Assembly (NCBI RefSeq): GCF_036365525.1 | Contig: NC_090404.1 | Location: 13,606,550-13,670,549, forward strand | DNA length: 64,000 bases | Source of the DNA: Heterodontus francisci | Taxonomy: Eukaryota | Direction: 5' to 3' | In this document: positions 13,661-46,602 of the stretch, piece by piece | How the letters are laid out: every line of letters starts with the position of its first letter | How positions within the stretch are numbered: the first letter of the stretch is position 1 | Notes under the pieces: model-generated | The model's input: the letters and a program-made list of their open reading frames with translations, nothing else | The model's database searches: none | Told to the model about the DNA's origin: nothing | Translations under genes and position numbers: made by a program

Positions 13661-13749
13661 CCGGTCACTGGGACCGCAATACAACAGTCCGGGAGCGGGT
13701 CTGCTCAGTGAGTTCTTGCCAGAACCATTTTCCCCGAATTGCCAGAAGG

Positions 13750-13795: not shown

Positions 13796-13924
13796 GTGAG
13801 TAGTTTTTGCTAGCCTTGTCTCTCACTGTTACTGTCTCAGTGTTAGTCTCTCTCTGGAATGTTACAGAGTCAGGAATCATTTCACCAGGATTAATCCTCG
13901 GGGTTTTTGATATTTTTTTTACAG

Positions 13925-14249: not shown

Positions 14250-14277
14250 CACAGCAGTTACTGTCAATACAAAAAAA
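14250..14277 (+). other. 12-bp-spacer RSS (D-type 3' RSS)
   Basis: CACAGCA, then gttactgtcaat (12 nt), then ACAAAAAAA. Confidence 0.9.
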
Positions 14278-14603
14278 AACCCTCGGCACTAACTGATGAA
14301 TCGAGGTCAGTGCTCGTTTTACAATCCAACTGTATATACAGTGAAGCATTATTTGTGTCCAACATTGTCCACCTAGCACGGTTTATGATGGATATACTAA
14401 TAAATATTCATTCATCAGTTGATGATTTCAATAATTGCTGACATGTTACTGTGTGAAATATAAAACATCAGGGAAATTTATAAAGAGTAAAACGAATCAT
14501 TAACGCAGTTATAATTCTATGAAGAATCATGATGATTTTATCTTGGCTCTGGGGTGTGGATATTTAAAATAAAGATAGATTTCTCTCTATTCTGTGCAGA
14601 GCC

Positions 14604-14690
14604 AGTTATTGTGTGACCCAGCCCAGGGAATGTAACACTGTGACTGTCTTGACTACTGGGGACAAGGGACCATGGTGACGGTGACTGCAG
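14604..14690 (+). CDS. IGHJ: IgM JH segment with 23-RSS
   Basis: agttattgt (14604-14612), 23-nt spacer, cactgtg (14636-14642). Coding 14643-14690 reads CLDYWGQGTMVTVTA; donor gtaaga. Confidence 0.96.
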
Positions 14691-15346
14691 GTAAGAAACA
14701 GGCACTTATTCAGTAACTGATTTATTTGTGTTTTTATTTTATATTTCTGTTTATTTTAATGATACATTCGTTCACTGGAATGTGGATTCGGTAGATTCTG
14801 TATTGAGATTTGTTGCAATGTTTCATGTGATTCTGCTGCAAAGGGATGAAGGAATTTAATGGTTTCTTCACAATCGGTTCTGTTGAGGGATTCAGCTCCA
14901 GATTGATGTGATTTGGTATTTATTTGCTGATGAGACTGTGTGTCTGGGCTACTTTAAATATCTAACTGTTGTTCAACTTTTTGACGTTTCTACAATGTTT
15001 AATCTCGGTGACATCTAGTTGCTACAGGTTTTCTGATCTAATACAAACAATAAGTGTTTAAATATGTTTGAAATAAGATTATAGTTAGAAAGCTTCAGTG
15101 TTCGAAAATAGCCTTACGATATTTTGATCTATTTTTATTTGTGGCAATTAAATTGCCATCTATCAATCTACTGCTCACGAATGCTCATATGTAATACAAT
15201 AAATTTTGCTGTTAATAATAACTACATAAATAACAAATTTGCAGCTTTGGTCAGATATGCATCAATCTAACCTCACTTATTATAATGCAGTGGTATCAGC
15301 CAATATTAATGAAATATGCTATTGTATCAATATTAATTTATTAAAC

Positions 15347-15392
15347 ATGCTGTTTGGACTAACAGTTCTGCTGCCATTATTTTATATTTCTG
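15347..15392 (+). CDS. Putative orphan leader exon in the JH-CH1 intron (MLFGLTVLLPLFYIS)
   Basis: aacATG start, 15 hydrophobic codons plus 1 nt (46 nt, same length as the VH leader), consensus donor G|gtaagt. No V exon before CH1. Confidence 0.6.
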
Positions 15393-18349
15393 GTAAGTCA
15401 GACACAGGCGGGCTCGGTGGATTCTGCATTGAGTTTTTTTTGCAATGTTACATTTGATTCTGCTGAAAGTACTTGTAGAATTAAGCTGCTTCTCCATGAA
15501 ACGTACTGAAGCAGTACAGTGATGTATTTGGTGTTTATCTGCTGTGGAGAGTGTGTGTCTATGTCACTTCGAATAAGTAAAATTTGTGAAACTGGCGTTT
15601 CTGCATTGTTTAATCTCGGTGACATCGAGTGGCTTCAGGTTTTCTGATCGAATGGAAACATTCTACGTGTTTAAAGACAGAAAACTGGCAGGTTTCAGAA
15701 ATGAGGAAAATATTTATAGATATTTCAAGGCATTTTTTAAATTGAAGTGATAATTGCAGATTAAACTATTCAGCCATGGTTGTGACACTCATTCAGTACG
15801 TGAAATGCTACTGCAATTATAAACTGCACAATTAGCAAGTTTGCAAATTGGAGAGTAAAGTTAATGTAATTCAAACAATTATAATGCGAGAATACCTCCT
15901 CATACAAACCAAATATGCTTTAATATTAACATAGGTTCATTATTCATTAATCACCTTTCACAATTCTGGTATGTCGTGCGCACAAAATTTTATAGGCTGG
16001 AAACAATTTTTAATTATGCTTGAAATGATTTCAATAAGAGTGTACTTATTCCAGTGTTCTGTTCAGTTTGAGCGCTTTAAAATTAATTATTATGTCCCTG
16101 ATTAAAACAGATGAATGACAGCTTGTATTTACTTATAACTTAAATAGGAGTTGTAAATTGCAGTTTTTCAGTGCAATATATCTGTCTGGTTATTACATTT
16201 TTTGCGTGCAGCCCAAACCATGTTCTTCCTTCAATGTCAATAGTTGTTGGTTGCGAGATAATTATCACTAATCTAATATTAACCATTTTCCTGAGACAAG
16301 AAGTCGCTGGCAGTCAAATAATTGTTCATGTGATTTTATTTAAATTGAAGAAACTTGCAGACAGCGTAAGGCTAAAGACAAACGAATAACACGTTGACAT
16401 TCAAGCAAATTCATTTAATTTCAAATGGTTAATGTTAGTGTTGAATTCAATAACAGCATCCTTCTCTCATAGCTGTGCTGCACATAGGACAGAATAATAG
16501 ACAAAGAACAGATTATACCCGAGAGTTATGCTTGATTCTTATAAAATACTAAATTGATAGACAAAACCTCGGCTACATTTACTCATTAAATTTTAGTGTG
16601 GCAGATGATCTGAAAGAATTATTCTCGTTCATACAGCTTGTTCATATAGCTTGTTCATATATCTAGATACAGCTCTTGGTCTAAAGGGGTCAAAGGGTAT
16701 GGGGCGAAAGCCGGAAAAGGCTACTGAGTTGGATGATCAGCCATGATCATCATGAATGGCGGAGCACGCTCGAAGGGCCGAATGGCATATTCCTGCCCCT
16801 GTTTTCTATGTTTCTATGTTTCACTTTTACAATGATCGTTTTGGAGCTTCTTTCAATAAAAACACAATATATTTAACAGTTAATTTACATGGATTGTGTG
16901 AATTACGGGAGTAAAGTATAAACACATTGTGTGATTAAATAGTGGCAGCACAGTTCCTGATTGCAAACTGCTCGGATGTTTTTGACTTTTTTTCTTACAT
17001 AGTTAAGATTTATGACAACATTTAAACATGAGACTCCTGCTTTCACAAACAGGCGATGTTACAGCCCATGGCCAGTTAGTGAGATGTGATCCCGGCCAGG
17101 CTTGGAATTATTTAAAATATTCCACTCATAAATTCATCGTGTGAAATACTTGCTGAGAACAGACCGAGTTTATGATATGTCAATGCATTCAGATGCATGC
17201 GCAGTTCACAAGTTTGTAGATGGAAAGCAGGGAGGGAGTAGAAATTATTGTTCATTTTAAATTATTGAACTGTGATTTGATTTATGTAAAAGTAATATAT
17301 TTGTCTGAATGTTTTCATCTATTAATATGATGTTTACTATTAAATATTGATTAAGTGTCATAATAATATAATTAAAACACCATTATTTCACAAGGTGCCA
17401 GGAAGAAACAGGTCTTGAATTAATATCAACTATTTTTTAAAAATACAGTATAAAATCAGCTAACATGCATATTAACCTAGAATATAACAGTGCTAATTCA
17501 CTAAACATAAATGACCTCCCACAATTGAGTAACATAATTGCCAGGATTCTAATGAGTGCAAAATCTCACGGGTCGGGGAGAATTTTGAATTATGTCTAAA
17601 AATAATTTAAAGAACAATGTATTTTTTACTCAGCTGTTCTTAACTCGATAACGTGTCGCCGCAGATTTTAATGAATTAAGTTTGTGTATTGCTTCAATTA
17701 TTATTTTTATGGGTAAAATTTAATTGTGAAATTGTATCTAACCAGTGGGTTTGCAAGGTAAATATCTCCTGATTTGCTAAATTCTTACTCTGTTATTGAG
17801 TTCCTGTTACAGACATCAAATTACCCTGAATATGAATTGTTTTGATTTACTCATTTTAAGGTAAACTATATCTTACATGTTTTTAAGACTGCAGACAGAC
17901 AGGGAGAAACAGTTGGAAGTCGAAGGGAGTATTTGAAATGAATATAAATTCAATTGGAAGAGCTTACAGACTTGGAGTGGTCAGAATTTGACAATTGATA
18001 AATTAGAATCAAGCAGCTTCATTGAAATTGACAGATTGTGCAGATCTATCTGCTGAGAGCCCTATTGTTGCATCCTTTGTGCCTGTTCTGTTTCTGTGCA
18101 CTTGTTCACTGTATCGGGACTAGATATCCTCCCGGCTGGTTGGGGTAAACCTGGTTCGTTCTCCTGTATTTTAAGGAGTAAAATTTGATCCATTTATTTA
18201 AGAAACTTGTATCTGTGAGAAATGTGGAACTTTGACTTTAAGTTTGATGAGACGCCTCAGCGATGAGATCAGTATTCCAGTCTGTGACAATCAGAAATAA
18301 CAGTTCAGAGACATGAGAGACAGAATGTAAAAGGAGCTTTGGTCAGTTT

Positions 18350-18720
18350 GTAATCAGTAATGTACCTCCCTTGGGAGTGTTTGATTCGACGATGTAGAGG
18401 AAGCTTCACCGTATATTTAATCCATGCTGTAACTGTCCTGGGACCGTTTGATAAGGACAGTGTAGAGGGAGAAATTGCTCTGTATCTAAACCTGGATGTA
18501 TTTTATAGGACAGTGCACAGGTGTACCTGATCCAGAGTGACAGTGCAGTGCAGAGGAGGCTTTCCACGGAATAAAGCACTTACAATATCTGACCTTACAG
18601 CTCATGATAGCGCCGTACAGGGGGGACCTTTACTTTACAACTTAACTGTCCTGTATCTGACCCGAGAAGGATTTTCCCGCAGTGTTCAAGGAACCTTAAT
18701 CTGCATCTAACTCATAAGCT
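18350..18720. repeat. Degenerate ~60-70-bp repeat (gtagagggagctttactctgtatctaacc family)
   Basis: Same family in the opposite orientation at about 29880-29960 and 34240-34500. Confidence 0.55.
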
Positions 18721-19699
18721 GCGCGTTCTCGACCCAGATATATGAAAATAAATTGTTCCATTGCCCAGATAAAACAACGCATATTAATTGATTTTACCAT
18801 TCATTCAAGCCCAAGTTTTAATGAATTAATAATATTTAAACATGCTAATTATCAGATAATTATTAAATGAGATTGGCCTGATTTTTTTTAGCGCACTTTC
18901 AGAACAAACAGTTTCAGGAAGTGACTGTAACGTTCCAGAGAGCGGCGTTTGTTCTGATCTGATGGGAGGTTGGAAGTTCTTTTGACGATTTATATGGAGA
19001 CGGTCGAGACTCCCTCTCCCAATAACCATCATGATAATCTCATGTTTAAACCAGTATTTCGTTCAAGTATTTTCAATAGGTAACAGGCAGTGATAAACTC
19101 TGGTGAGATACATACATTGGATTTGGACTGGATCACAGCTGAGAACACAAAGCCACTGAAGTCAGCTTGTGTGAAACTTTTGAAGTGATACAGTTAGTCT
19201 GCAATCAATGTCAATCACAATAAGCTTTAAGTCTCTGACAGTATCTGATTGACTCATTTGTATTAAATCCTTCAGATCCTCTTATTTCAAAAATCATCTT
19301 TCATAATAACAATCAATAAAATATATGTCACAGAGATGTTCAGATTTATGAAGCTTTTCCTCCCATTACATTTTGAAGAACTAATTCTGCTGAGTCGGGT
19401 AGAATCATAGAATCTTCTCGCACGGAATGTGGCCATTCAGCCCGTCACGTCTGTGTTATCTCTCAAAGAGCTCTCCAATTTAATCCTACAAGCCAGCTTT
19501 TACGACATAATCATGCAAATCAGTCTCCTTCGAGGACATGCCCGGTTGCCTTGTGCATTCCGGATGCACTTGCAGAGAGCCTGCACGGACACGATGGGTC
19601 GAATAGCCTCCTTTTGTGCTGTAGCCATTCTACGGTTCTATGAAAACAGCCTCTGTCTGGAAAGAAACCTCTTTCCGCAGTCATCACCCGCCCCACGTT

Positions 19700-20600
19700 C
19701 CACTTTGTTTGCCAATTATTTATTTTGTTACTGACCCACTTGACAGAGGAAATAGTTTGCCCTTATCAGCTCTATCAAAACATCCCATAATTTTGAGCAT
19801 ACCTGTTCGATAACCGCCTAAGGAGAACAATTCGGCTGGTATAATCTCTCTACATAACTGAATCCCCTCATCCCTGACATCATCCTGGTAAACCGCCTCT
19901 GCACTCTCCCCAACATCCTTCCTAAAGTGTGGTGGCCAGAATTGTACAAAAATATTCCAGCCTAATCAGTGATTTGTAAGGCTTTAATATGACGTGTTTC
20001 TTTTTTGTTATCAATATTCCATTTTACAAGACCAAGTATTCCATTCGCTTCCTTACCTGCCTTCAAAACATTATGAGTATGCACCCCAGGTTCCATTACT
20101 TTTTACACCCTTCAAATAGTACCATTTAGATTACATTAACTTTCTATGTTCTTCCTCAAAAGTGCAGCACTTCGCACTTATCCGCGTTAGATTGCATCTG
20201 CTCTGTCCCTGAACATTTCACCAGTCTGTCTATGTCCTCCTGAACCCTGTTACTATCCTGCTCACTATTTGTTTTGTATCATCCTCGAACTTCGAAATTC
20301 TACTCCCCACACCCAATTCCACGTCATTGTACATAACAAAAAAGGCAATGACCCTATGACCGACCCAAGGGGGATCACAATCCTGAATTTTTTCCAGTCA
20401 GAAAAGCATTGGTTCACCGTTACTCTCTGCTTCCTATACATTATCAAGTCACCACTATGCCTTTAATCCATACGCTTCTATTTTCCGAATGTTCTCTTTT
20501 GTGGTATGTTATCCAATGCCAGTTGAAAGCCCAGATGTCCAACTTTTGCGCCACCAACATCGACAATCTTTTTTTACATCATATTGATGAGTGAGCTTTC
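19700..20600 (-). mobile_element. CR1-like LINE fragment
   Basis: RKQRVTVN...IPLGSVIG (GVPQGS-like), followed by decayed RT sequence. Confidence 0.7.
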
Positions 20601-22150
20601 AATATCTGACCAATAAGCCCCAGGTGTTTGAATTGTCCACACAACCAAGTTAGAGTTGACCATGTCAGCAATAACACTTCAGGAATTTTTGTCCTTCCTT
20701 GCATGGAACCTACTGTATACATCACTCGATGTATAATGTGTAAGTGATGTCAATATCAGATATTTAGAGAAGAAACCTATCCTGATGGTCACATTAAGGT
20801 CGGTTTAACCAGCAGCAAGAGGTGACTGTAACGACACAGTCAGCAACACCAGTTCTCACTGGTGAGAGGTGGGAAGACACTTTGGAAAATTAACTGGACC
20901 ATTTAAACAACATCGTTTCAAATGACCAATTTTAGGAATCGGGTTTAATTGAGTTGGAGGGAAAAGCAAACTCGGGAGAGATCCATTCAGGAGAACAAGA
21001 TAGAACACAAATCACAATCCTCAAGTACTGAGAAGGAAAGCGATAGCCTAGAATCAATGCAGATTCATCTAAAACTTTAATTCCAAAAGCTAGGTTGTGT
21101 AAAAATTCCGCTTTGAAATCTGGGTACTAAATGGTTCAGTCAATATTTTAAAGGAGACTTCAACCATTTATTGCAAAAGTCCTTTATTGTTATGGGGACA
21201 TAGAAGATTAAGATGAAGTCTGGTAGAGGTGTTTTGAATAATGAATGGTTTTATACTGAAATTCAGAAACCAATTTCCCCAAATCAGTGAGTTGGTCTGT
21301 CGAGAGCACTGATTTAAAATCAGCGTCAAAAGAATGAAGGAAGAGGGTATGGATCTACTTTTCTACACAGGGGGTTGTTAGGATCTGGGATTCTCCTAAC
21401 AGAAAGAGGAGTGTCGGCAGAATCCATAAGAACTAGATAAAATGGAACTTTTGAAAAGAAGATTAGGGATTGGAAGGTCAGCAGGATTACTGGAATGACC
21501 TTTCACAGGCCTGATGGACCGAATGGCCTCATTCTCTGCTATCAATTCTATTATTTTATAATCCTGGTTCACCAACGACCCAAAGAAGCTCAAATGCCAC
21601 TGTAGATTTTTATGGGAAATTAATGGAATTACTTTGCCTGGTATCAAGTTTCAAGCTTTAAGCTCATTTTATAAGCACCCATTGAGATGGCACTTTTTAA
21701 CAGTAGTCGCTATTTTTGGGGGGTAGGGGTGGAGGGGTGAGGGAACCCAGCAGTCAATTTACAGAGAGCAAATTTCCAAAAACTGCAATTAATAAGTGCC
21801 AAGTATTTTATTTATTGACAAAGTGCTGTTGGCTTCGAAATAACTACTGGCAGGAATAGCGGGAAATCCCTACTTCCAGTTTAATCCAATGAAAGGGACT
21901 TTATTGAGATGACGTCAAAAGGCTCTTTTGTAATGTGACAGATCCGGAAAGAGAGGTGTGTTCCTGACCAGGGGATCGACAGGCGATGATCATCGAATGA
22001 TGGAAGTGGTAGAAGCTCAAATGCGGATGAAGATTTTAATCGGAAAATATTGGAATCAGTTTCGAGCTAGTTTCAAATTCCGAGTTGTCTTGTAACTTAA
22101 TGAACGTGAATCACAGAGTCTAACCTGTTCAATCTGCCATTCTTTCCCAG

Positions 22151-22448
22151 CGACACCGTCTCCCCCCAACTCTTTACGGTCTTTGCTCCTGTGAACAACC
22201 CAACACAGACGGCTCCGTGGCCTACGGCTGTTTGGCGATGGACTACATCCCCGAAATCACCACCGTTTCCTGGTAGAAAGATAATGAGCCGATCACCACT
22301 GGATTGAAGACTTACCCGTCAGTGCTGCACAAGAAGGGAACCTACACCCAGAGCAGCCAGTTAACCATCACCGAGTCAGAGGTGGGAAGCAGCAAAATCT
22401 ACTGCGAGGTTCGACGTGGCGAGTCGGTCTGGAGCAAGGAAATGCCAG
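22151..22448 (+). pseudogene. IGHM: IgM CH1 exon, disrupted
   Basis: ATPSPP / [40 protein letters not shown]...[17 protein letters not shown]. +1 frameshift in a C6 run (22162-22167) and in-frame TAG at 22274-22276. Confidence 0.93.
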
Positions 22449-22659
22449 GTTGGTGTTGAGGAAACTGTGAAAAACAGAAAAGTTTTAATGATCTTGTATA
22501 GAGTTTTGGCTCTACCACATTTAGAGTACTGTGCACAGTTCTGATCCCTGGAAACTCCAGTTAGTGTCTGCTTGACAGCAAAGAACCTGTTAAAATGTAA
22601 GAACAGTTTGCTTTCGCTATTAATTTCTTCCAGAAATGTCTAACATGTTTTTCTTGAAG

Positions 22660-22977
22660 ATTGTAAAGGTGACATGGTCCATCCAACTGTTATCCTCACC
22701 CAGAGTTCCAGTGAAGAAATCACAAGCAGAAGATTTGCAACTGTCGTGTGTTCAATCATCGATTTCCAACCAGAGTCAATAACCGTGAGTTGGTTGAAGG
22801 ATGGACAACCCATGGATTCGGGCTTCGTCACCTCTCCCGCCTGTGAAGTGAACGGGAACTTCTCGGCAACCAGTCGGCTGACAGTCCCCGCCGGGGAATG
22901 GTTCACCAACACGGTCTATACCTGCCAGGTCTCCCATCAAGGGGTCACACAAAGCCAAAACATCACCGGATCTCAGG
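22660..22977 (+). CDS. IGHM: IgM CH2 exon, intact
   Basis: [20 protein letters not shown]...VVCSI...WLKDG...[20 protein letters not shown] with ag/gt borders. Confidence 0.95.
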
Positions 22978-24013
22978 GTAAGAGAAGCAAACGGAGGAAG
23001 CTCCGGATCATTCTGTGTTCCAATGATAATCCAATTCAATAATTTATTGGAATTAGTACAAAGCACAGAATAATTTTCTAATTCGCCATCATGTAGTTTT
23101 TATGCTTCATTCCGCTGTGAGTGCTGAGTTCGGATAGCTCACGGTTCAACATGTCATCACATCACCAGAGAATGGTTCCCTTTGCTTTGATGGCATACAG
23201 TGAGTGAGGTGGCTTTGATATCTGGTGTATCCTGAGTTGTCTGATCATATTCTACTATTTTTCCTATGTCTCTATGACAACCCTCTGGTCAGATGACCCT
23301 CTAACTCCAGACTGACACATGAGTTCTCACTCAGGACAGATATTAGCAAACTGCCTTATACCGTTACTGCAAAACATTCTCCACCTCAAAAAGATTCCTT
23401 GGAACTGCATTTTCCCGACCTTTCACCCCTCCTCCGATTGGTTCCTACATATTTTCATCTCCCCAAATATCGTAACAAGGCGCCAGAAACTTAACTTTGT
23501 TTTCTGCTGGGCTAAAAATTCAGAGTTTCATTTGACATTCGTTTTGAGCCAGTGTGAATTCTATGTATAGCTCGTGTCCTTGGGTGACAGAGCCATTATA
23601 TTCAGCGGAGATGTGATCTGGTGCAAGGATCGATAGACGGACGGAAATACGAACATACGAATTAGGAGCAGTAGTAGGCCACTCGGCCCCTCGAGCCTGC
23701 TCCGCCAGGGATTTCAGGAAGAAAGTTCTTTAGTGCGGAACATAATTTCTCCCGCAATTATTCGATTTTTTCGCCGGGGTACTTGCTTAAAAGCCCATTA
23801 CAGGCTTCTTTGGGTGCAAATACACAGTAACTGTTATCGGATCTCCAGGAAGCTTTTTCAGGCTGTTGTCCTTCCAATAAACGATATTATTTAAGCAACA
23901 GCTGGAGGTTGATGTCTCGAAGTTGATTTATTCTCCTAGAGACAGTGAAGGCTGAATATTGGTGTCTGATTCTGAAGATGAATCTTTGTTTGACTTTCAT
24001 TTCTGTTTTACAG

Positions 24014-25350
24014 TTCCTTGCTCCTGCAATGATTCAGTAATTAAACTACTGCCACCATCAATAGAACAGGTCTTACTGGACCTCCCTTCCCCTGTCAGCA
24101 TTCCGAAGGGATCGTTCCCTCCGCGACACCCTGGTCCACTCCTCCATTACCCCCACCACCTCGTCCCCGTCCCAGGGCACCTTCCCTTGCAATCGCAGGA
24201 GGTGTAATACCTGCCCATTTACCTCCTCTCTCCTCACTATCCCAGGCCCCAAACACTCCTTTCAGGTGAAGCAGCGATTTACTTGTACTTCTTTCAATGT
24301 AGTATACTGTATTCGCTGCTCACAGTGTGGTCTCCTCTACATTGGGGAGACCAAGCGCAGACTGGGTGACCGCTTTGCGGAACATCTCCGCTCAGTCCGC
24401 AAGCAGGACCCTGAGCTTCCGGTTGCTTGCCATTTCAACACTCCCCCCTGCTGTCATGCTCACATCTCTGTCCTGGGATTGCTGCAGTGTTCCAGTGAAC
24501 ATCAACGCAAGCTCGAGGAACAGCATCTCATCTACCGATTAGGCAGACTACAGCCTGCCGGACTGAACATTGAGTTCAATAATTTCAGAGCATGACAGCC
24601 CCCCACTTTACTTTCATTTTTAGTCATTTTTAGTTATTTTTTCTTCCTTTTTTTTTGCATTCCTTTTTACATTTTTTGCATTTATTTCATTTCATCTTAG
24701 TTTGTTCAGTTTGCTTACCCACTGTTTTTTTCAGGTTGTTTTTCTTCAGGTTTGCACTTGCTGCTGTTCAATATTCAGTGTATTCACACCTAATCTGTAC
24801 TAATGCTTTGTCTTTCAACACACCATTAACATATTGTTTGCCTTTGCTCCGTGACCTTTTGGTCAGCTATGTGGCCTGGTCCAATCTGCACCTTCTCCTT
24901 TGTTATCTCTTGCCCAACCCCCACCTCACTTGTTTATAATCTGTGACTTTTCTAATATTTGTCAGTTCCGAAGAAGGGTCACTGACCCGAAACGTTAACT
25001 CTGCTTCTCTTTCCACAGATGCTGCCAGACCTGCTGAGTGAATCCAGCATTTCTTGTTTTTGTTTCAGATTTCCAGCATCCGCAGTATTTTGCTTTTATC
25101 TTACTGGAGGCGACGGTGACCTTAACCTGCGTCGTGTCTAATGCTCCTTATGGAGTCAACGTGTCCTGGACCCAAGAAAAGAAGCCTTTGAAATCAGAGA
25201 TTGCCGTCCAACCCGGAGAGGATCCCGATAGTGTGATCAGCACCGTAAACATCTCGACACAATCCTGGCTGAGTGGGAATGAGTTCTACTGCGTGGTGAG
25301 CCATCAGGATCTGCCGACTCCTCTCAGAGAGTCCATCCACAAGGAAGAAG
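24014..25350 (+). pseudogene. IGHM: IgM CH3 exon split by an insertion (24014-24080 and 25109-25350)
   Basis: [22 protein letters not shown] / [21 protein letters not shown]...[22 protein letters not shown]. Removing the insert and one TSD copy restores the frame. Confidence 0.95.
24081..25098 (+). mobile_element. 5'-truncated Penelope-like retroelement (GIY-YIG endonuclease C-terminus)
   Basis: ORF 24266-24595 NVVYCIRCSQCGLLYIGETKRRLGDRFAEH...GLNIEF. 10-bp TSD tcttactgga at 24071-24080 and 25099-25108. Confidence 0.93.
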
Positions 25351-25834
25351 GTGAGCGGAGAGATTGAAGCAATACGTGAGAGGTTGTGTCCATTTCTGGT
25401 GTTTGTGCAAGGCCCAATTCGTCCTATTAAGTGGTTGAATGGATTAGTCCGATAATGTAATTGTAATTCACTAACGCACCTCTCTGGAACCATAGGTGAT
25501 GTATTTAAGGGGAAGCGAGATAAGTAGTTGAGGGAGAAAGGAATAGAAGGAGATGAAGTAAGGTGGGAGGAAGTTCGTGTGAAGCAGAAACACCAGCACA
25601 GGCTAGTTGGGCCGAATGGCCTGTTCCTGTGCTGTAAATTCGATGTAATTTTCCAGTCGAATTCTTTCCGTTCTCAGCAAGAAAGATTGCCCCCGCCTCT
25701 GCTCCGGGCTGGAAAACAGGACAGGCCCCAGAGGGGAAAAGAAAACCTTTAAACATTTCTCTCACATCCAGCCACCGGATTCATTGTCTCTGGAATTCTC
25801 CAGTTTATTGACATTTATTTTATTTTTTCTGCAG

Positions 25835-26226
25835 TTAAAGATCTGCGGGAACCGTCCGTGTCTATCCTCCTGCCCCCGGCAGAAGAAGTCTCCGCTCAGA
25901 GGTTCCTCTCCCTCACCTGCTTAGTGAGAGGTTTCTCCCCCCGAGAGATCTTCGTCAAGTGGACCGTCAATGACAAGTCGGTGAATTCCGGCAACTACAA
26001 GAACACCGAGGTGATGGCAGAGAACGACAATAGCTCCTACTTCATCTACAGCCTGTTATCCATTGCAGCGGAGGAGTGGGCCAGCGGCGCTTCTTACTCC
26101 TGTGTGGTGGGACATGAAGCGATCCCCTTGAAGATCATCAACAGAACAGTTAATAAATCCAGCGGTAAACCCAGTTTTGTGAACATTTCCCTTGCACTGT
26201 TGGACACTGTTAATTCATGTCAATGA
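25835..26226 (+). CDS. IGHM: IgM CH4 exon plus secretory tailpiece
   Basis: [15 protein letters not shown]...LTCLVRGF...[11 protein letters not shown]...[22 protein letters not shown]. Internal donor at 26165 for the membrane form. Confidence 0.96.
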
Positions 26227-26254
26227 GAATCTCTCGATTGCATTTCAATTCTTA

Positions 26255-26270
26255 AATAAAAACCAATAAA
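26255..26270 (+). terminator. Polyadenylation signals of the secretory form
   Basis: Two AATAAA hexamers (26255-26260, 26265-26270) just after the stop codon. Confidence 0.75.
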
Positions 26271-27339
26271 GACCTTTTCTTACAATCGCGATTTAAATAC
26301 ACAACGCTGAATTAAGTTTGCTTCCCACATTTGCTGAGGGTTGGTCTTTTCATCTAAAGCAGGATATTTGCAGTTCTCGGGTCTTGTAGAACCAGTGCTC
26401 CCAGCTCAGATACACCACAGGTTAGTGACGGAAGAAAGCAGATTCATTACAGGATTCCGTAGAGTAACTTCAGTCACGTTCCTGCCTCTGGGAGGAAATC
26501 TGCAATTTTCCCTTTTCGAACAAACAACTGCAACACATATAGATCTCGATGTTCCGGCTTCTCGTGTTATCCATCCCTTCAGAATTGGGGTCAGTTTGAA
26601 GTTGCAGCATCACACTCACTGGGAACTGAAATGAGGGTCACACACGAACACGAACTTTACCAAAAAGCCCCCCCCTTAGAAAGAGGGGAAAGGACAACTT
26701 ATTAACACACTGCAACTCCACTTCCTAAACAGAGACAGGGAAAGGGCAATTGTTAATCCATTGTAACTCCACTTCTCCAATAGAGAGTGGGCAAAGGCAG
26801 TTGTGAACCGACTGTACGTCCTCTCCCCAATTTCTTCAACAGGGAAAGGAGCAAGGACATTTGTTCACCCACTATACTCCCACTCCCCAGAGAGATTATA
26901 TGAACCATCAGTTGCCATCAGTACAAAGTCGGCTTCTAGCTCACTATGCAAAGGTTTTAAGCTTTCCGCATGGGAATAAAATTGTAAAATATATATTCAT
27001 GTAGCATAATATCTTTAAACCTTTCCCCGTTAATCTTATTCGAACACATTTCATTTTAATAGTCTAAATCTAACTGGTGATAGAATCCTCCTCTGTTTTT
27101 TTCACGCTTGTGTTCCTGATGTTTCTGAGGCCCATCAGTTTCTTTATCCATGTGTGTGTCAGTTTCTGAGGCCCATCAGTTGCATTACTGAATGCATTCA
27201 GCAGATGTCACATTGCAATTCGCACAGAATACATTTATACACAGAACGGTGAAGAATGTTTTCTACAATGCACACCGTCAAGGCCAGACCCGATTATTGG
27301 TTTTCTGTGGAACTTGAAAAGTGATAAAAATCCACAGGC

Positions 27340-28200
27340 ACACGAACGCAAACACACACATACACCTACATACACGAACAAACCTAATTGCTGATATAAA
27401 CGCTCCCATAGTCACACACACAAACATAAACATAAACATTCACTTTAGTACAGTCTCACGGACACAGAAACATAGACATAAAAGCACAGACTAGGATACA
27501 CCATTAACACACGTACATGGACGCTCATACTCGCACACTAACAAACTCACAAAGAAACACATCGATAAATAGACACATGAACATACTCACCCACACAAAT
27601 AAACATTAATATACTGACACACACATGGATAAAGAAACAGACACATAAACACATACATCAGCACACATGTACAAATAATCACACATTCACACACGCATTA
27701 ATTCATAAGTGTGAAGATTTACACATGAACACACATATTATCACACTAATGGGGGCATAAACACACATAAACAAACATGTTAACACACCCATATACACAC
27801 ATTGACACATAAGCAGGCATTAACTTACAGGGACACTTAAACACATCCACCAAAACAGAAACACAGATTGACAAATTCACACATAAACAAATATTAACAC
27901 GCTCATATACACACACATGGACAGGTAGGCACAACATACATACATACACACACACACGGACACACACATGCGGTCACTGGAATACACATATCAGTTCACA
28001 TTGACACATTAACACACATGAATATACATGGACACATACACACAGCTATCAACATATAAACAAGGACATTAATACACTCACACTTAGGTACATAAACGAA
28101 CAAATAAACACACCCATTAACACACACACGCACAGATGGATACACAAAAACAGAGTATTGCAAAGCAAGAAATACTCATACAAACATACACAAGCACTAA
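27340..28200. repeat. CA-rich low-complexity tract
   Basis: Degenerate (CA)n/(CATA)n between CH4 and TM1. Confidence 0.8.
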
Positions 28201-28798
28201 AGCGCACTAAGAAAAACGCCAGACTATAGAAGAGGGCAGAATTCAAATGTACTGTTGGAACAGCCACCATCTCCAACAATTTCCCTAATACATGTTGGAC
28301 CTGCAATCATAATGAAACAATGTTCTCACTTAGAAGCTGAGATAAATTAATGATTTATGACCACTTTCATCACAAATAAACAAACAAGATTGGAACTCAC
28401 TTCCGATCGCTTACCCAGCACAATTGACAATCTCCAAATAAGTAGCTATCTGAAGCTATCTTCAAAATAATTGTTATCGGTCAGTAAACCTCCCTCGATA
28501 TCTCACCATAATAATCTCTAATGATAGAACGAAATTGATCCAAAATAAAACAGCGCCTGACACTGAAAAAAAAACGGACATATTTTCCAACACGGCCTGG
28601 GCGAGGTTCATAAAGGAAGCACGGCTGTGGAGTTAGTAACAGAGATAGATTGCTGAATGTGATTAACAACAGTAGATATGTAGTGAAAATTGAATTCAAG
28701 CACAAAATGAAGGACGAGGACTGCGAATGCAAAATAGCAGTCTTATATACTGGATTAATAAACGATCTAAATATATTTCCTCCTCTACATCCCTGTAG

Positions 28799-28926
28799 AT
28801 TCCTCAGACCACATCTGGATTGAAGACAATGAGGAAGAGAGAAACAACACCTGGACAACCGCTTCCACATTCATCATCCTGTTCTTCCTGAGCATTTTCT
28901 ACAGTGCTGCTGTCACTCTGGTGAAG
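28799..28926 (+). CDS. IGHM: IgM TM1 exon
   Basis: DSSDHIWIEDNEEERNNTWTTASTFIILFFLSIFYSAAVTLVK, containing the conserved antigen-receptor TM motif; ag/gt borders. Confidence 0.93.
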
Positions 28927-29072
28927 GTGTGAATATTCAATCCACTCACACTTCAATCTGACTGAAGCTGTTTAACAAAACTCTAAAATTTTCATTGATT
29001 AAAAAAAAAACTCTGAGATGAATTTCCCGGAACACGAAATCTTTGCTTCATTCTTTTGACCCTCTTTTACAG

Positions 29073-29081
29073 ATCAGGTGA
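29073..29081 (+). CDS. IGHM: IgM TM2 exon (I-R-stop)
   Basis: Polypyrimidine tract cctcttttacag followed by ATC AGG TGA. Confidence 0.7.
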   Translation: MR

Positions 29082-30757
29082 TCGATTGAATTTGAGCCGC
29101 CCTGGATTTTCCTCATTTTTTTAACATCTCTGTATTACCAAACAAACTGTAAAAGAAAAATGCCGTCAGTTTATGGTTCTGAATCTGTAGCTGAGAAAAC
29201 CATAAACAATATTTCCGTTTTTCTGTTTGAAATGTATGAGATAATCTTGGCTATAATGTAAATGTATCTTCGAGTTTCATCGTTGTTTGAATTTCATGTG
29301 TAAATAAGTAACTATTCCTTATTCACAATTGTTTCCTTCCCTTTATGTTGAGCCCTGTTTTCTCTTCCTGGTCTGTTACAGTTTTACAGATAGCAGACCG
29401 CATGTGTTCTGTTCTCAATGTGACACACAGTTGTCGTATTCATTTTGGATTCTTTCTTTAAAACAAAAGTTCTCTGCAAAACGTTCCTTTTGCAATTGTT
29501 AATAAATCTTGAATAACGAATGCACGAACTTGGACTGCGATGAGTTATTTGCCCTAAGACCATCAACACTGCTTCATGTTTCCTGTTACACGTTTTCGCC
29601 CTTTCCTTACAGCTATTTTTCACCAGTTCAGCCTGGGTTGTTTTTGAACCCAAGGCCTTTTGGTGAAGGAGCTGCTGTGCCATCCGGAGTCCTATCAGAG
29701 TAAAGACACCTTTTTCCTCTGCGAAATTATGCCAATCCCCAGAGGTGGGATGACCGCACAGAGACCTAGAGCACCTTGCTGACTTCTCTGATCTAATGGT
29801 CTGTCACAGTCACATGTCAGGTTGTATTAAAGAGCAGCGCTCTGCTCCATCACAGCCTGATACAGTGTAGTATGTGGAAGAATACTGTCCCATCAAACAC
29901 TCCCAGGACAGGTACAGCACTGGGGTTAGATACAGAGTAAAGCTCCCTCTACACTGTCCCCATAAAAAAAAAGATTAGATATAACACAGACACATGGGGG
30001 AGCACACACTCTGGGAATGATTCCTCGAGACTGGTGCATATCTGACACAATATACCATCGAGCGTAAATGCTGGGAATTATTAGAAAAGCCTGGAGTCCG
30101 TCTGATACAACAGGCAGAACAAACCCAGGAATGATTCCCACAGACTGGGGCCTATCTAATGCACCGGAGAGGACAGCCTCTGGGAATGATTTCCAGGGCC
30201 TGAAGCCTATGTGACAAACATAGAGGCAGACTGCCTGGGTTGATTCCCAGAGCCTGGGGCCTATCTCACACAACAGAGAGCACAAACCATGGAAATGATA
30301 CGACGATACTGAGGCCTAGCTGATGAAGAGACACCATCTTTGTATTTTTTGTTATACGCACAACACACACTGCCCACCGGTTCGGTCCGACACACACACA
30401 CACACAAACACACACTGACTCATCACTTTTCTCTTCTGCATGTGCCGACTATTTGCCTCCACCTTTTCTGCTATGCCCTTTACTCTCGCCCCTCCATCAC
30501 ATGTTTCCCTGATAATCTTTGTTCCGCTCCATTCCCTATTATACCATCTCCCTGAACGCACAGAACATCACCCAAGATCCGCTCTCCCTGCTCCATTCCC
30601 TTTGATACCATCTCCGTGAACTTACAGAACATCGCCCCAGGAATCCGCCGGTGAGCTTCACACCTCCACTACCTAAGTTTCTCTCCCGTCCATATCGTCG
30701 GAGGTTTCTGTTCAGACCCGAGAATCTTCCGGTATTTTTCCTTCTAATGCTGAGTCG

Positions 30758-34154: not shown

Positions 34155-34193
<39 letters not shown>

Positions 34194-34763
34194 ACACACA
34201 CAGATTATAGTACAAATATAAACTACCTGAGTTAAGAATAGAGCAAAGGTCCCCGTACACTGCCTAGTCACACACTCCCAGAGCAGGTACAGTATGGATT
34301 AGATATAAGAGTAAAGCTTCCTGTACACTGCCTCATCAAACACTCCCAGAGCAGTTACAGTATGGGTTAGTTACAGAGTAAAGCTCCCTCTACACTGTCC
34401 CAGCAAATTCTATGAGGGCAGGTACTTCACGGGTTAGATACAGAGTAAATTTCCCTCTACACTGTCCCATCAATCACTCCAGGGCAGATACAGCACAAGA
34501 TAATATCCAGAGAGACTCTGCCAGAATCGGGCAGGATTATGCGTGAAATGGAGAAAAATAAACGCTTTTACAAGTAAACAGTACATATTATTTTATTATC
34601 AGAAAAATAAGGATTCTGATGATGCAATTTACTCATTTAAATTGCCTTATTTCTGATCTTACTTGTATCGCACGAGCTTCTGTAACCTGTGAACTGCTTC
34701 TCTCCTCACGCCCCATGCTCAGTGTGTTATCGTACAGGCTCCTCATCTCTATGTTTCACCGTG

Positions 34764-35044
34764 CCTCACTGCACTGTAATACACAGCAGCGTCTGACAGC
34801 CGAGACGTGTTAACGGTGAGAGTGGTGGAGCCTTTCTCACTGTCCACAGATATTTTAAACCTTCCCTCAACTCTCTCATCTCTGAATGTGGAGACGAGAT
34901 ATTGGGGAGCTTGATTGGAGAACTGCCGGTACCAGAATATAAACTCATTTGTAGAGAAAGTAGCGTTGTGATGAAGTGAAATGGTTTGTCCTTCGGTTCC
35001 TTGATGCATCGACGTCTGGAATGTCTCCTGGTGACAAGGAACAG
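34764..35044 (-). pseudogene. TCR alpha/delta-type V exon, open frame but both canonical Cys lost
   Basis: ...GQTISLHHNAT...IFWYRQFSNQAPQYL...LSDAAVYYSAVR. 23-RSS: CACGGTG (34757-34763), 23 nt, ACGATAACA (34725-34733). No clear leader. Confidence 0.85.
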
Positions 35045-35704
35045 CTGTCAAAGCAAGAACAAAAAATTAACATAATGATCTGTACAAGGAGAATGAAATA
35101 CTAAAATAAAACAAAATACTGCAGATGCTGGATATCTGAAATAAAAGCAGAAAGTGACGGAAATACTCGGGTCAGGCAGCATCTGTGGAGAGAGAAGCAG
35201 AGTTAATATTTCAGGTCTGTGATCTTTCATCAGAATCTGTTCGGTTGAGAGGGAAAAATGGAGTAATCTACGCATTTCTCCATCTATCTACCTATCTGTC
35301 GGTCTATCCTTTGATATATCTATTTATTTATCTATGCATTCACCCATCTATATCTACCTCTCTATTTATATATATTAATTTATCTCACTTTCTCTTGTTC
35401 TATTTGTCTGTCTATCTCGGTGTGTGTGATGCAGTGTTCCATGTCCGTTCATGTACGTACTTTGCAAGTTGTGCAAGCAAACATAGAATATCTTAGTTAA
35501 CTCATTTCAATGCACTGTAGCTGTAGTAACAACTACAGGATGCTGCAAATTTATCCCGACGGAAGTTTAAACACGGGCAATTAACATTTCTGAATATCAC
35601 CGAAACTTTTAAAGGGCTTTATTTGGGGAAAGGTGAACGGTGCAGCGGAGCCACGGCAGCAAACAAGATATTGTGCAGCTGGATCCGCTCTTTGCCTCAC
35701 TGTG

Positions 35705-36132
35705 TCCCCCTGGCACAGTAATACAGTCCGGCGTCCAGGGCCGTGGTGTCATCTATAGAGATGGTGTTGGACTTCTTTACTCGGTCTAAGGACAGTGTGT
35801 AGCGTCCTTTAGCCTCAGTCCCCTGGTATATGGAGCCGATAAATGTCGGGGCCCCGGTCAACGTTTGTCTGTACCATGCTACGGTATCCTGAGAAGTAAT
35901 GGAGAGCCGGCAGTCCAGTTCAGCCCGTTCACCTTCCCGAGACACCACCTGCTCAGGGTCTGAGCTCTGATCCTCACACCGAACGGCTGTGAACAAAACA
36001 AAATCACTCAACAACCGCGAGATATTAAGAGTTTGATGAAACAAGGTGTCTGATCCGATAAATAAACTCACACAACATCAAGAGCACCAGAACTCCAACT
36101 GGAAGCAGGTTTTTGTGGAGGTTTCTGTTCAT
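35705..36132 (-). CDS. TCR alpha/delta-type V gene, apparently intact (leader 36072-36132, V exon 35705-35986)
   Basis: Leader MNRNLHKNLLPVGVLVLLML with donor gtgagt. V exon VRCEDQ...AELDC...WYRQ...DAGLYYCARG. RSS CACAGTG (35698-35704), 23 nt, ACAATATCT. Confidence 0.9.
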
Positions 36133-43500: not shown

Positions 43501-44430
43501 AGCCGTTTAAATACTGTGAGTAGGTCAGAGGCTAGAAATTCTGAGGTGGGTAATTCACCCCCTGACTCCCCAAAGGCTGTCTACCAGGGGCGGCACAGTG
43601 GCGCAGTGGTTAGCACCGTAGCCTGACAGCTCCAGCGACCCGGGTTCAATTCTGGGTACTGCTGTGTGGAGTTTGCAAGTTCTACCTGTGTCTGCGTGGG
43701 TTTCCTCCCACAGCCAAAAAGACTTGCAGGTTGATAGATACCTAGTATAGGTAGGTGGTAGGGGAATATAGGGACAGGTGAGGATGTGGTAGGAATATGG
43801 GATTAGTGTAGGATTAGTATAAATGGGTGGTCAATGGTCGGCACAGACTCGGTGGCCCGAAGGGCCTGTTTCAGTGCTGTATCTCTAAATCTAAATCAAA
43901 AAAATCATACAAGTCAGGGGTGTGATGGAATACTCTCCACTTGACTGGCTGAGTCCAGCTCCAACTCTCAAGAAGCTTGAACCCATTCAGGCCAAAGCAG
44001 CCCACTTGATCGGCACACCATTCACGAACTTAAACATTCACACCCTCCACCACCGACGCACAGTGGGAGCGGTGTGTACCATTTACAAGATGCACTGCAG
44101 CAACTCAGCACGCCTCCTTCGACAGCACCCTCCAAACCCGTGAACTCGTCCACCTAGAAGGACAAGGGCAGCAGACGCATGGAAACACCACCACTTGCAA
44201 GTTCCCCTCCAAGTCACACACAGTCCGCACTTGGAACTATATCGCCGTTCCTTCAATGTCGCTCGGTCAAAATCCTGGAATTCCCTTACTAAAAGCACTG
44301 TGAATGTACAGACACCCGTTGAACTGCTGCGGTTCAAGAAAGCGGCTCACCACCATTTTCTCAGGGGCAATTCGGGATTAGCAACAGTGGCCCTGCCAGC
44401 GACGCCTAAATCCCATGAAAGAATAAAACA
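40600..44430 (+). mobile_element. Long decayed LINE (CR1/L2-like) with nested LTR and SINE insertions
   Basis: AGVPQGSVLGPTIFSCFINDLP..FTDD (42878-43120) and 3'-end ORFs at 43922-44430. Confidence 0.85.
41529..42562. mobile_element. Solo LTR (~1.03 kb) inserted in the LINE
   Basis: Begins TG and ends CA, flanked by aaag/aaat. The LINE sequence (...caagacaaa / ...aatccagctaactacc) resumes across it. Confidence 0.65.
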
Positions 44431-45272
44431 AGTCCCAACTGCAGAGTTCCCTCAATGTCCATTGACCTTCCGAGTGTTGCTTCAATCTGTCACTGCAATT
44501 GGAAACTCTGAATGTTACAGACCTGGAATTCGATCATTACTGAATGGAAACATCATTTTAAATACACACCATAGAAGAGGCAGAAGCAGGAAGCATTTGT
44601 TTAAATGACAGGAGAGTTTATTATTTGTGTATATTGTGTATATCTGCCTGGATATTGACAATATCACTGGACTGTCTCAGATTGTAACCTGACCCTCAGT
44701 TGCTGGACTGGGGGAAGCTGCCGGGTTTGAGGCTCCGTCCTTCAGATCAGACATTTAACTGAGGCCCCGCCAGCCCGTTCAGGGAGATGTTAAAGAATCC
44801 CCGGCACTATTGGAATAAGAGCAGTGAGGGGGGATTCTCCCGGTGTCCTGGGCCCACATTCCACCCTCAACAAACACCACCCAATAAAAACACATGGAGC
44901 GACCTCCCAGCTCATTACTGTGGGGGAAAGGAGGGCGGCAGCTTCTACTGACAGAAACCACGCCCCCCCAGCCCCACCCCCTGTACATCAGACTAATGTG
45001 GGAGGGGATTTCACATCGGCCTCACAAACCCAATGAAACGACAGGAAACTGCAGGTTCCCTCTTTAAACCTGTCGCTTATTCACACAACACACAGCCAGA
45101 GACCAGGGAACCGTGCGGCCCATCAATCATCTCCGGGACACTGTCCTCTGTAAATCAGCTCGACCCCCTGAAGTATTTCAGTCCAGCTCTGAGGTCCAGT
45201 CTCCCAGAGCAGTCCAGGGCTGCAGTCTCCAGTTCCCCGTCATATAAACCATCAGCTCCAGGCAGCAGAACG

Positions 45273-45755
45273 ATGGGAATACTCCTTGTTTTCACCCTGT
45301 GTGTCTGTTTACCCCGTGAGTACCGAACAAACAAACCGACATTGTGTGGATTTAATATAAAGCTGCCCGAGTCCATCCGAATTACAGCCACTGTCTCTGG
45401 TTTTAGCCTCGTTTTGTGTTTCGGCTCTGATGGCCCATTAAACTCTCTGTTTAATTTCCAGGCTCTTTCAGTCAGTCAGTGACACAGACCCCGGCAGATG
45501 TGAGCAGGAAGGAATGTCAGTCTCTCACCATCACCTGTGTTTACAATGGTGGTTATTGGGATTATACTTTCCTAAATGGACATTTCTTCAGACAAACCCA
45601 GACCGGGACAAAGCGGGAGCGGATCTCCGGTGGAGGGCGATTTGATGTGTCGGTGAATAAGGCAGAAAAGACATTTTCCCTGCAAATTGGTGACGTGAGA
45701 GTTGAAGACAGCGCCACCTATTACTGTAAAGCTGATTACGAATACTACTACAACA
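45273..45755 (+). CDS. NAR-TCR V gene (leader 45273-45315, V exon 45462-45755)
   Basis: Leader MGILLVFTLCVCLP. V exon QSVTQTPADVSRKECQSLTITC...HFFRQ...ERISGGGRF...EDSATYYCKADYEYYYN: IgNAR-like short FR2/CDR2, extra FR1 Cys, Phe in place of the conserved Trp. TATA at 45243. RSS CACAGTG (45756), 22 nt, ACAAAAACT. Confidence 0.92.
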
Positions 45756-46118
45756 CACAGTGATGGACCTCGGCTTCCCGCGGTACAAAAACTCTCACTG
45801 CAGATTATCACAGAAACAAATGAAAAAGCGGAGTTAATCTGCCGTTAACCCTCACAGTTCCGCCTCGCACCGTCTCCCCCACAGTCTAGTTTATAATGAG
45901 ATTGGATTATTGCCGTTAACATCTTGAGTTTTATAAATGCCGAGTGTGTGCGGATGGTGATGACATTCCCGGGATTGCTGTCAATGAATGGAGATTGGGA
46001 ATGACTGATCCCAGTTACAAACCCCTAACACCAGATGGGATCCTGTTCTAACTGCTGAAACCGGGAACCGTAGCCCTCAACGTTTCACTAATATCCCCAC
46101 ATCTCACCAAGTACCGGG

Positions 46119-46192
46119 GGATTTTGTGTTGACTTGAAACATTGTGATGACTTCTGGAAAAAGTCACAGTGGATGAGCCCTGAACAAATACA
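46119..46192 (+). other. NAR-TCR D segment with 12/12 RSSs (coding 46147-46164)
   Basis: ggattttgt, 12 nt, cattgtg; ATGACTTCTGGAAAAAGT; cacagtg, 12 nt, acaaataca. Confidence 0.92.
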
Positions 46193-46510
46193 TCTCTACA
46201 GTTAAAATATAATTTCCCCGGGGACGGATCCTGAATTGTAGGGTTGATGTTATTATCACTGTAGTGTGGTTTAATTTTATTGTAATTTCCTCCTTTCTAT
46301 TCTCTTTCACATATTTACCCATTTAGATGAAGCGCGCATCTTCAACCCGCGTTCCTGGGACATTTTCCAAAGAGCTCAGTCTCACAAAGGACAGTTTGAA
46401 CCAACAGGGACTGCGGAACATGGAATATTGCTTATTAATCTAAAATCCATGGAATAATTGGGCAGCGCTGACTATCTGGTGACGTGTGACCGACAGATTA
46501 AGATGTCGGT

Positions 46511-46602
46511 AGTTCTTGTACCGGGGTGACTGAGAACGGTGTCACTGTGTTACGAGACTAGATACGTGGATGGATCCGGGACGGTGGTGACTGTCACAGC
46601 CG
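46511..46602 (+). CDS. NAR-TCR J segment with 23-RSS (coding 46550-46602)
   Basis: agttcttgt, 23 nt, cactgtg. Translation YETRYVDGSGTVVTVTA (DGxG in place of W/FGxG); donor gtaagt. Confidence 0.92.

Follow-up and report, generated by a model that had tools for sequence, protein, structure and literature searches.

A pre-joined IgM gene upstream of a NAR-TCR cassette

We asked whether a pre-joined IgM VDD gene of Heterodontus francisci could rearrange to a neighbouring NAR-TCR cassette and so provide the N-terminal V of a two-V TCR-delta, as an earlier sequence-only reading of the locus had proposed. The window (here the whole stretch of 64,000 nucleotides that was analysed) carries on its forward strand an IgM VH leader exon (13750-13795) and a VH exon with pre-joined D1/D2 (13925-14249). 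The V is fused to D sequence, has no V 23-RSS and ends in a D2-type 12-RSS (14250-14277, forward strand; CACAGCA, a 12-bp spacer and ACAAAAAAA) that faces the JH 23-RSS ~400 bp away. Its frame is open through YYCAR and a further 24 bases (junction, 14226-14249), after which the RSS heptamer follows. The JH (14643-14690, forward strand) has a WGQG motif and a GT donor. The VH is 82% identical to the closest named VH, Heterodontus francisci HV01, and matches the Pfam V-set family; in contig alignments, D-like letters were seen repeatedly in V-to-JH junction inserts.

C-mu1 to C-mu4, the secretory tail and the transmembrane exons are all present on the forward strand, with three C-mu lesions. C-mu1 (22151-22448, 298 bp) contains a +1 frameshift near 22162, the extra base of which is missing from 97-100% of the aligned contig depth, and a TAG at 22274. 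A 1,028-bp repeat (24081-25108) interrupts C-mu3 (24014-25350), and its insertion left a target-site duplication of 10 bp. C-mu2 (22660-22977) is open, as is C-mu4 with the secretory tail (25835-26226), which is followed by AATAAA at 26255 and 26265; the exons TM1 (28799-28926) and TM2 (29073-29081) are followed by AATAAA at 29501. The three lesions make the cluster a pseudogene for IgM, and C-mu is indeed dead, as had been claimed. The VH, the leader splice sites, the JH and the 12-RSS are nevertheless intact, which runs counter to reading the whole cluster as a pseudogene, as this is the pattern expected if the V was kept for TCR use. At the lesion density of C-mu, the probability of finding zero lesions in 419 bp is 0.42-0.56, and the open frame of the V therefore does not speak for selection.

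We consider it likely, with a probability of roughly 0.75, that the pre-joined VDD and the triply broken C-mu belong to a decaying pseudogene, a shark IgM minilocus that lies upstream of the NAR-TCR cassette. Its 12-RSS, if it is cut at all, would then join the JH of the same cluster, and no protein would result. The VDD join would be a germline event made by RAG in germ cells, an action that has been described for shark VD-J clusters. It is very unlikely that the VDD is not germline at all and that the assembly captured a somatic VDD-J intermediate of lymphoid DNA. VDD-J is among the most frequent stalled intermediates in thymocytes, where IgH is open to RAG according to the available part of the published account, and the assembly is the one source of the 24-bp junction; against this, none of the neighbouring NAR-TCR and TCR V segments has rearranged, and the catshark gene model P0043 has the same layout of VH, short junction and 12-RSS. 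Assemblies normally report the majority allele, which also counts against a somatic VDD, and clusters that are partly joined in the germline are well documented in the accessible shark literature.

Possible recombination partners of the VDD

The leader, V, D and J of the NAR-TCR cassette lie on the forward strand at 45273-46602. A leader (45273-45315) and a V with an FR1 Cys (45462-45755) are followed by an RSS with a 22-bp spacer (45756-45793), a D (46147-46164) that is flanked by 12-RSSs on both sides (46119-46192), and a J (46550-46602) with DGSG instead of WGQG and a GT donor. The order and signals of the cassette (V-23, 12-D-12, 23-J) are IgH-style, and its V, D and J appear healthy, with one departure at conserved columns. 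As the sequence-only reading held, the VDD 12-RSS at 14250 faces the NAR-TCR J 23-RSS (46511-46549, reverse strand, 0+2 mismatches) in the orientation of a 32,300-bp deletional join. The VDD signal has 2+2 mismatches to the consensus, a grade that 12-RSS-like sites can also reach by chance (mean 1.61 per shuffled window). Its position, together with the same heptamer-plus-spacer read through behind the VH in P0043, nevertheless shows that it is the real D2 3' signal. In contrast, 23-RSSs of 0+2 grade are not due to chance, as there are 6 in the window versus a mean of 0.07 in 100 shuffles.

The JH 23-RSS (14604-14642, reverse strand, 0+2 mismatches) equals that of the NAR-TCR J in grade, yet at 393 bp from the VDD heptamer it is 82 times closer to the VDD, and we would expect it to outcompete the distant signal. 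Weaker facing 23-RSSs stand at two inverted TCR-type V genes, 20.5 and 21.5 kb from the VDD. One (34764-35046, reverse strand, weak 23-RSS at 34763) has lost its second Cys (YYS), and the other (35705-36132, reverse strand, 23-RSS at 35704 with 0+3 mismatches) is open and has a leader. Three facing 23-RSSs are thus nearer to the VDD than that of the NAR-TCR J, while its J-type partners within the window are exactly two, at 0.4 and 32 kb. A motif scan of the window found no D-delta, J-delta or C-delta; a conventional TCR alpha/delta-type V is present at 62842-63163 (forward strand, 23-RSS at 63125). TCR-delta D and J segments normally carry 5' 12-RSSs. If this holds for shark D-delta and J-delta, it is a fair point that the NAR-TCR J is the sole productive TCR exit for this VDD; in the platypus, the accessible text of PMC3457774 gives D-delta a 5' 12-RSS. 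The route is not special to a pre-joined gene, because the 5' 12-RSS of the NAR-TCR D at 46146 is equally compatible with the 23-RSS of any unjoined upstream VH. Compatibility under the 12/23 rule is no evidence of use, and the fit to the NAR-TCR J may follow incidentally from the IgH-style signals of NAR-TCR cassettes.

How far such joins reach in sharks has been described for the nurse shark, whose IgH miniloci recombine almost solely internally in the available text (1 of 58 thymic VDD-J clones was interlocus; PMC2435157). Rearrangement is confined to the minilocus according to an abstract, and nurse-shark thymocyte IgH is partly rearranged while Ig transcripts were not detected, as far as the accessible account goes. 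The Malecek assay, in its available description, used JH primers and is therefore blind to NAR-J joins. Thymocyte VDD-J intermediates would moreover supply a free 12-RSS in the right cell, which also counts against the pseudogene reading, as do the open frame of the untrimmed NAR-J join, the healthy look of the cassette's V, D and J and the frequency of VH-to-TCR-delta chimeras in sharks. We regard it as unlikely that the VDD-to-NAR-J deletion occurs as an occasional thymocyte by-product of open chromatin and yields an unselected chain, a sticky unpaired VH that lacks the linking Cys on a damaged-looking supporting V. The 12/23 fit, the deletional orientation, the accessibility of thymocyte IgH and the rare but known interlocus joins in the published excerpts are all consistent with it; the three nearer 23-RSSs would compete, and shark Ig joins are described as cluster-confined in the available parts of PMC5192425 and PMC4279169.

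The predicted chain and its parts

Next to the recombination signals stand the reading frames. An untrimmed VDD/NAR-J join, spliced to the leaderless supporting V-delta (52598-52904, forward strand), is open throughout, in agreement with the claim that this product splices in phase at 52598. A splice from the JH to 52598 had also been called in phase; the phase is correct, but it is the common norm here because the boundaries of the JH, the NAR-TCR J, the C exons and the supporting V are all of phase 1, and the VDD/JH join itself needs a one-base adjustment. That the VDD joins the JH and the transcript then splices the JH directly to the supporting V is extremely improbable: phase-compatible as it is, the splice would be a 38-kb jump over four C exons, two TM exons, three AATAAA sites and the splice sites of the NAR-TCR leader, V and J, and the loose ends listed behind the JH run on into C-mu1.

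The supporting V is open and has a CDR1 Cys, and it looks damaged from its sequence, with a one-residue gap and six departures at columns that are ≥90% conserved, compared to a median of 2 among 38 relatives, a set of mostly gene models in which the function of the members is not established. It has His at a motif site where 38 of 38 relatives have Asp, and a Val-to-Glu substitution immediately before the core Trp; as many or more departures occur in 4 of the 38. Two perfect 23-RSSs follow in tandem, at 52905 and 52968, and then a degenerate third copy (together 52905-53006, forward strand). A neighbouring inverted supporting-V pseudogene (56579-56843, reverse strand) has a 38-bp deletion and is already frameshifted. 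Both the VH and the supporting V may be drifting.

The VH has the two canonical cysteines only, so the absence of an FR1 Cys was correctly noted; this Cys is found in 36 of 38 related NAR-TCR proteins. Use as a single domain requires change at the FR2 residues that face the light chain, according to the available text of PMC3149040, and the VH shows no adaptation to light-chain-free use: it has no extra Cys and an ordinary FR2 that resembles those of light-chain-paired shark IgM VHs. In its leader, Pro replaces the Leu that is present in 11 of 11 shark leaders inspected and in spliced contigs. The CDR1/CDR2 pattern DWM/LLEY is common to two other shark VHs, P0039 and P0135, and therefore reflects an old lineage, not decay. 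The nurse-shark G2C pseudogene is a chimera donor. We dropped a link between it and the present gene, as the G2 primer, in the available text of PMC2435157, encodes a P0141-like leader start and not the DWM/LLEY type.

Could capping a three-domain TCR-delta (VH/NAR-J, then the supporting V-delta and C-delta) be the true purpose of the VDD, in a shark counterpart of mammalian TCR-mu? An intact VDD beside a dead C-mu and an in-frame untrimmed join are in its favour, and TCR-mu shows that a supporting V can work with a VH-related cap (PMC3457774, accessible text). With the missing FR1 Cys, the unmodified light-chain face, the leader Pro and a damaged-looking supporting V, we nevertheless hold this to be highly improbable. 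The same low probability applies to the more specific proposal that germline pre-joining and the loss of C-mu made the VH a dedicated NAR-TCR cap, with the 32-kb deletion giving a semi-invariant VH/NAR-J domain on the supporting V-delta, which would be the shark equivalent of TCR-mu and a living snapshot of the origin of such receptors. The 12/23 logic and the frames of the proposed route to a VH-capped TCR-delta are thus correct, whereas the inference of its use is weak, because a 23-RSS of the same grade lies 82 times nearer, IgH joins in sharks keep to their minilocus, the VH lacks single-domain adaptation and the supporting V looks damaged.

Contigs and public proteins

Matches to 13700-14720 came from 16 sequencing runs of 7 studies, none of them recorded as RNA, and the contigs of four runs (X1, X2, X6 and X7; one sample) were aligned to 13600-23000. 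Two short intron contigs had 0 and 1 differences, while most others listed differed by several percent, and the sample may come from another species than the window. Behind the JH, the loose end listed was C-mu1 at 98-99% agreement (contigs of 3 of the 4 runs, one sample). No joint starting inside the VDD junction (14226-14249) was seen among the 15 of 148 listed, from contigs that drop rare variants and cover this site thinly, and no match to the NAR-TCR J or the supporting V among the 24 of 504 loose ends listed, which are subject to the same loss of rare variants.

Among longer proteins, a search with the VH gave 16 matches from 29 candidates. In none of the eight proteins inspected did a NAR-TCR J follow the VH, as they run from the VH into a JH-type segment and C-mu-like sequence. 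The 38 public supporting-V proteins, which being mostly gene models are weak evidence, include none with an IgM-type VH cap, and this too argues against a purposeful cap; a NAR-type V comes first in 37 of them, and in the chimaera model P0002 the supporting V is preceded by a TCR-type V and two NAR-type Vs. A PDB search returned generic antibody chains and nothing informative. We found no published report of a VH joined to a NAR-TCR J in the literature searched, which covers the primary papers incompletely.

Comparison with known systems

Most likely, the cluster is another partly joined IgM pseudo-cluster of the Ig/TCR-delta complex already known from sharks. Because the window offers the VDD exactly two J-type partners, the locus can serve as a clean natural experiment on whether RAG joins in sharks ever pass from a minilocus to a TCR cassette nearby. 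If the distant join were real and under selection, it would add a further shark form of TCR-delta, in which an antibody VH is the unpaired cap as a parallel to TCR-mu, and would show a one-step route to three-domain TCRs. The literature already contains IgH clusters next to TCR-delta, clusters that are partly joined and chimeras of VH with TCR-delta, and a VH-capped two-V TCR is known as well, in the form of mammalian TCR-mu. Deiss 2019 reportedly describes an IgH minilocus that sits inside the TCR-delta locus of the nurse shark.

With the partly germline-joined shark IgM miniloci, as the available parts of PMC4279169, PMC5192425 and PMC2193156 describe them, the cluster shares the VH-D fusion, a single 12-RSS ~400 bp from a JH with a 23-RSS, and four C-mu and TM exons. 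It differs from them in its three C-mu lesions and in its position: a NAR-TCR leader follows 16 kb downstream, and TCR-type V genes lie in between. For germline-joined H genes of the horn shark, expression was reported as undetectable in the accessible text of PMC2193156. The cassette in turn shares with NAR-TCR, the doubly rearranging TCR-delta of cartilaginous fish, the leader, NAR-type V, D, J and a supporting V that lacks a leader and has a 23-RSS of its own, and is ~60-80% identical to shark NAR-TCR relatives; it departs from them in the damaging-looking substitutions of the supporting V and the duplicated RSS, and the proposed product would replace the NAR V by an IgM VH.

Shark chimeras of IgM/IgW V with TCR-delta, and TAILV, share with this locus an IgH V that lies near TCR alpha/delta segments and could be recruited into a TCR (PMC12227049, PMC5931798 and PMC3457774, in their available parts). 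According to the accessible text of PMC12227049, sharks commonly form VH-to-TCR-delta chimeras, and proximity favours them. The published chimeras join an IgH V to TCR-delta D-J-C and have one V domain. The present gene has no free 23-RSS on a V or V-D1 and retains the 12-RSS only, and is thus not of the shark chimera-donor type; if 5' 12-RSSs are what D-delta and J-delta carry, the VDD, having lost its 23-RSS, is barred from that route. The TCR-mu of marsupials and monotremes resembles the proposed product in being a three-domain chain whose N-terminal V is VH-related and sits on a supporting V, as far as the available text of PMC3457774 goes. In contrast to the proposed product, TCR-mu has a dedicated locus and both of its V domains are VH-related, and it is convergent with NAR-TCR, not orthologous to it.

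Results

The window belongs to an antigen receptor complex of a cartilaginous fish. Three units occupy its forward strand: an IgM minilocus from VH to the TM exons (13750-29081), the NAR-TCR cassette at 45273-53006 and, at 62842-63163, a conventional TCR-type V. The minus strand holds two short inverted TCR-type V genes between the IgM cluster and the NAR-TCR (34764-36132; at 34.8 and 35.7 kb), one open with a leader and an RSS and the other without the second Cys, and a broken supporting-V copy (56.6-56.8 kb). A motif scan of the 64-kb window found no D-delta, J-delta or C-delta. Among named VHs the nearest is one of Heterodontus francisci (82%), and relatives of the supporting V were found in sharks, a ray and a chimaera. 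An inverted duplication (51686-52968 versus 58072-56515, blocks of 75-79% identity) covers the supporting V and ~0.9 kb of upstream intron; the inverted copy has a 38-bp exon deletion and a repeat inserted immediately upstream. Near the window start, an inverted repeat of ~350 bp (1969-2311 versus 7405-7057, 78% identity) flanks a tandem-repeat-rich region at ~3.4-5.8 kb, and an isolated minus-strand 12-RSS-like site (1192-1219, 1+1 mismatches), with no Ig motif detected around it, may be a relic or have arisen by chance.

The VH exon (13925-14249) stays open past YYCAR and 24 further bases (14226-14249), up to CACAGCA-12-ACAAAAAAA at 14250. This 12-RSS has four mismatches to the consensus, a weak match of which shuffles yield 1.61 per window. 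Judged from sequence, the gene is a VDD ending in a D2-type signal, since the catshark gene model P0043 reads through the same heptamer and spacer behind a VH, and short D-like words of the 24-bp junction reappear in V-to-JH junction inserts in contigs of related IgM transcripts.

The likeliest state of this gene, with a probability of about three in four, is that of a decaying pre-joined IgM pseudogene, joining locally or not at all. C-mu is dead, as the sequence-only reading had held: C-mu1 carries one surplus base, which makes the exon 298 bp long, as well as a TAG, and C-mu3 is split by a 1,028-bp insert that shows a target-site duplication. The extra base is absent from 97-100% of contig depth across the four runs, and at 13958 the VH disagrees with at least 99.6% of aligned contig depth. 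Against decay count the intact VDD, 12-RSS and splice sites, and also the CDR1 DWM and CDR2-flanking LLEY that the VH has in common with two other shark VHs, P0039 and P0135 (a bamboo-shark VH and a further IgM), a pattern that suggests an old VH lineage or subfamily. An open V beside a C-mu with three lesions is no evidence of selection, because 419 bp would go unhit at the C-mu lesion density with a chance of 0.42-0.56. The start of the JH intron is duplicated and diverged (14788-15062 versus 15414-15675, 73%), with a GTAAG donor-like site at ~15390, just before the second copy; this may be what is left of a second JH.

Which 23-RSS could the VDD join? Six minus-strand 22/23-RSS-like sites face it. 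The JH 23-RSS lies 393 bp away (0+2 mismatches), the weaker RSSs of the inverted Vs 20,514 and 21,455 bp away, and the NAR-TCR J 23-RSS (46549-46511, 0+2 mismatches) 32,300 bp away; two further sites lie beyond. The scan agrees with the earlier proposal that the NAR-TCR J signal faces the VDD in deletional orientation, and an occasional, unselected join to this far J is conceivable, if unlikely. In nurse shark, IgH miniloci rearrange almost entirely internally, with 1 of 58 thymic VDD-J clones being interlocus (PMC2435157). That assay used JH primers and is hence blind to NAR-J joins; passages of that study describe thymocyte IgH loci as extensively but partly rearranged, often to VDD-J, with Ig transcripts undetectable. 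Such rearrangement cuts both ways: it leaves a free 12-RSS in T-cell precursors, yet in every IgM cluster. Pre-joining confers no special access to the NAR-TCR on the VDD gene, because the free 12-RSS is general to IgM clusters and the NAR-TCR D would accept an unjoined VH just as well.

An untrimmed join of the VDD to the NAR-TCR J (46550-46602) would keep an unbroken reading frame from the VH ATG through the whole supporting V (52598-52904), which agrees with the phase proposed for a splice to 52598 and is a point for a functional VH-capped two-V TCR-delta. We consider such a receptor very improbable, given that the VH FR2 is of ordinary type (as across the 18 shark VHs compared), that the leader has Pro in place of the Leu seen in 11/11 shark leaders and in the spliced contigs, that the supporting V itself looks damaged, and that 0/38 public supporting-V proteins, most of them gene models from genomes and not repertoire sequences, carry an IgM-type VH cap. 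The N-terminal V of NAR-TCR is thought to be unpaired (passages in PMC6795676 and PMC3457774), and unpaired V domains are said to require an altered hydrophobic FR2 face (a passage in PMC3149040). The supporting V has a one-residue gap and differs from its relatives at six columns with conservation of at least 90%; among these departures are Asp-to-His in the DxAxYYC motif, where relatives have Asp in 38/38, and Val-to-Glu directly ahead of the core Trp. Relatives show a median of two departures (six or more in 4/38), and the NAR V one. The sequence-only reading was also right that the VH lacks an FR1 Cys, its only Cys being at positions 25 and 98 once the exon is translated. The FR1 Cys occurs in 36/38 related NAR-TCR proteins and the supporting-V CDR1 Cys likewise in 36/38; Criscitiello reportedly proposed in 2006 that the two pair. 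The supporting-V 23-RSS is tandemly duplicated in ~63-bp units (52905-53070), the first two perfect and the third degenerate, and its second copy would, if used, add non-coding bases. In the NAR-TCR V (45462-45755), as in most of its shark relatives, Phe takes the place of the canonical core Trp (GHFFRQ); the RSS of this V has a 22-bp spacer.

Direct splicing from JH to 52598 had also been suggested. The phase is correct because all these exons have phase-1 boundaries. The splice would have to skip the four C exons and both TM exons, run past three AATAAA sites and ignore the splice sites of the NAR-TCR. Among the loose ends listed, JH continues into C-mu1 in three of the four runs, in contigs mostly from paralogous clusters.

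Discussion

The anatomy of the locus belongs to kinds already known. Partly joined IgM clusters (passages in PMC4279169, PMC5192425 and PMC2193156), linkage of IgH clusters to TCR alpha/delta across intervening TCR-type Vs (in part of PMC12227049) and chimeras of IgH V with TCR-delta (in parts of PMC5931798 and PMC3457774) have been published, and NAR-TCR is a known system in print; NAR-TCR as well as Ig-TCR linkage is confirmed in a chimaera (a passage in PMC3964593). Shark VH-to-TCR-delta chimeras, described in a passage of PMC12227049 as common and attributed to proximity, count against decay. In the literature searched, with incomplete coverage of key papers, none of the papers described a VH joining a NAR-TCR J. 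In the basking shark gene model P0001, a NAR V, a supporting V and downstream VH-like domains precede a TCR constant region, so that in a second shark, too, VH-like segments lie interspersed with NAR-TCR cassettes. In mammalian TCR-mu a VH-related domain caps the supporting V (passages in PMC3457774 and PMC2275272), and the proposed receptor would work alike, but its VH, with an ordinary FR2 and no extra Cys, shows no adaptation to life without a light chain.
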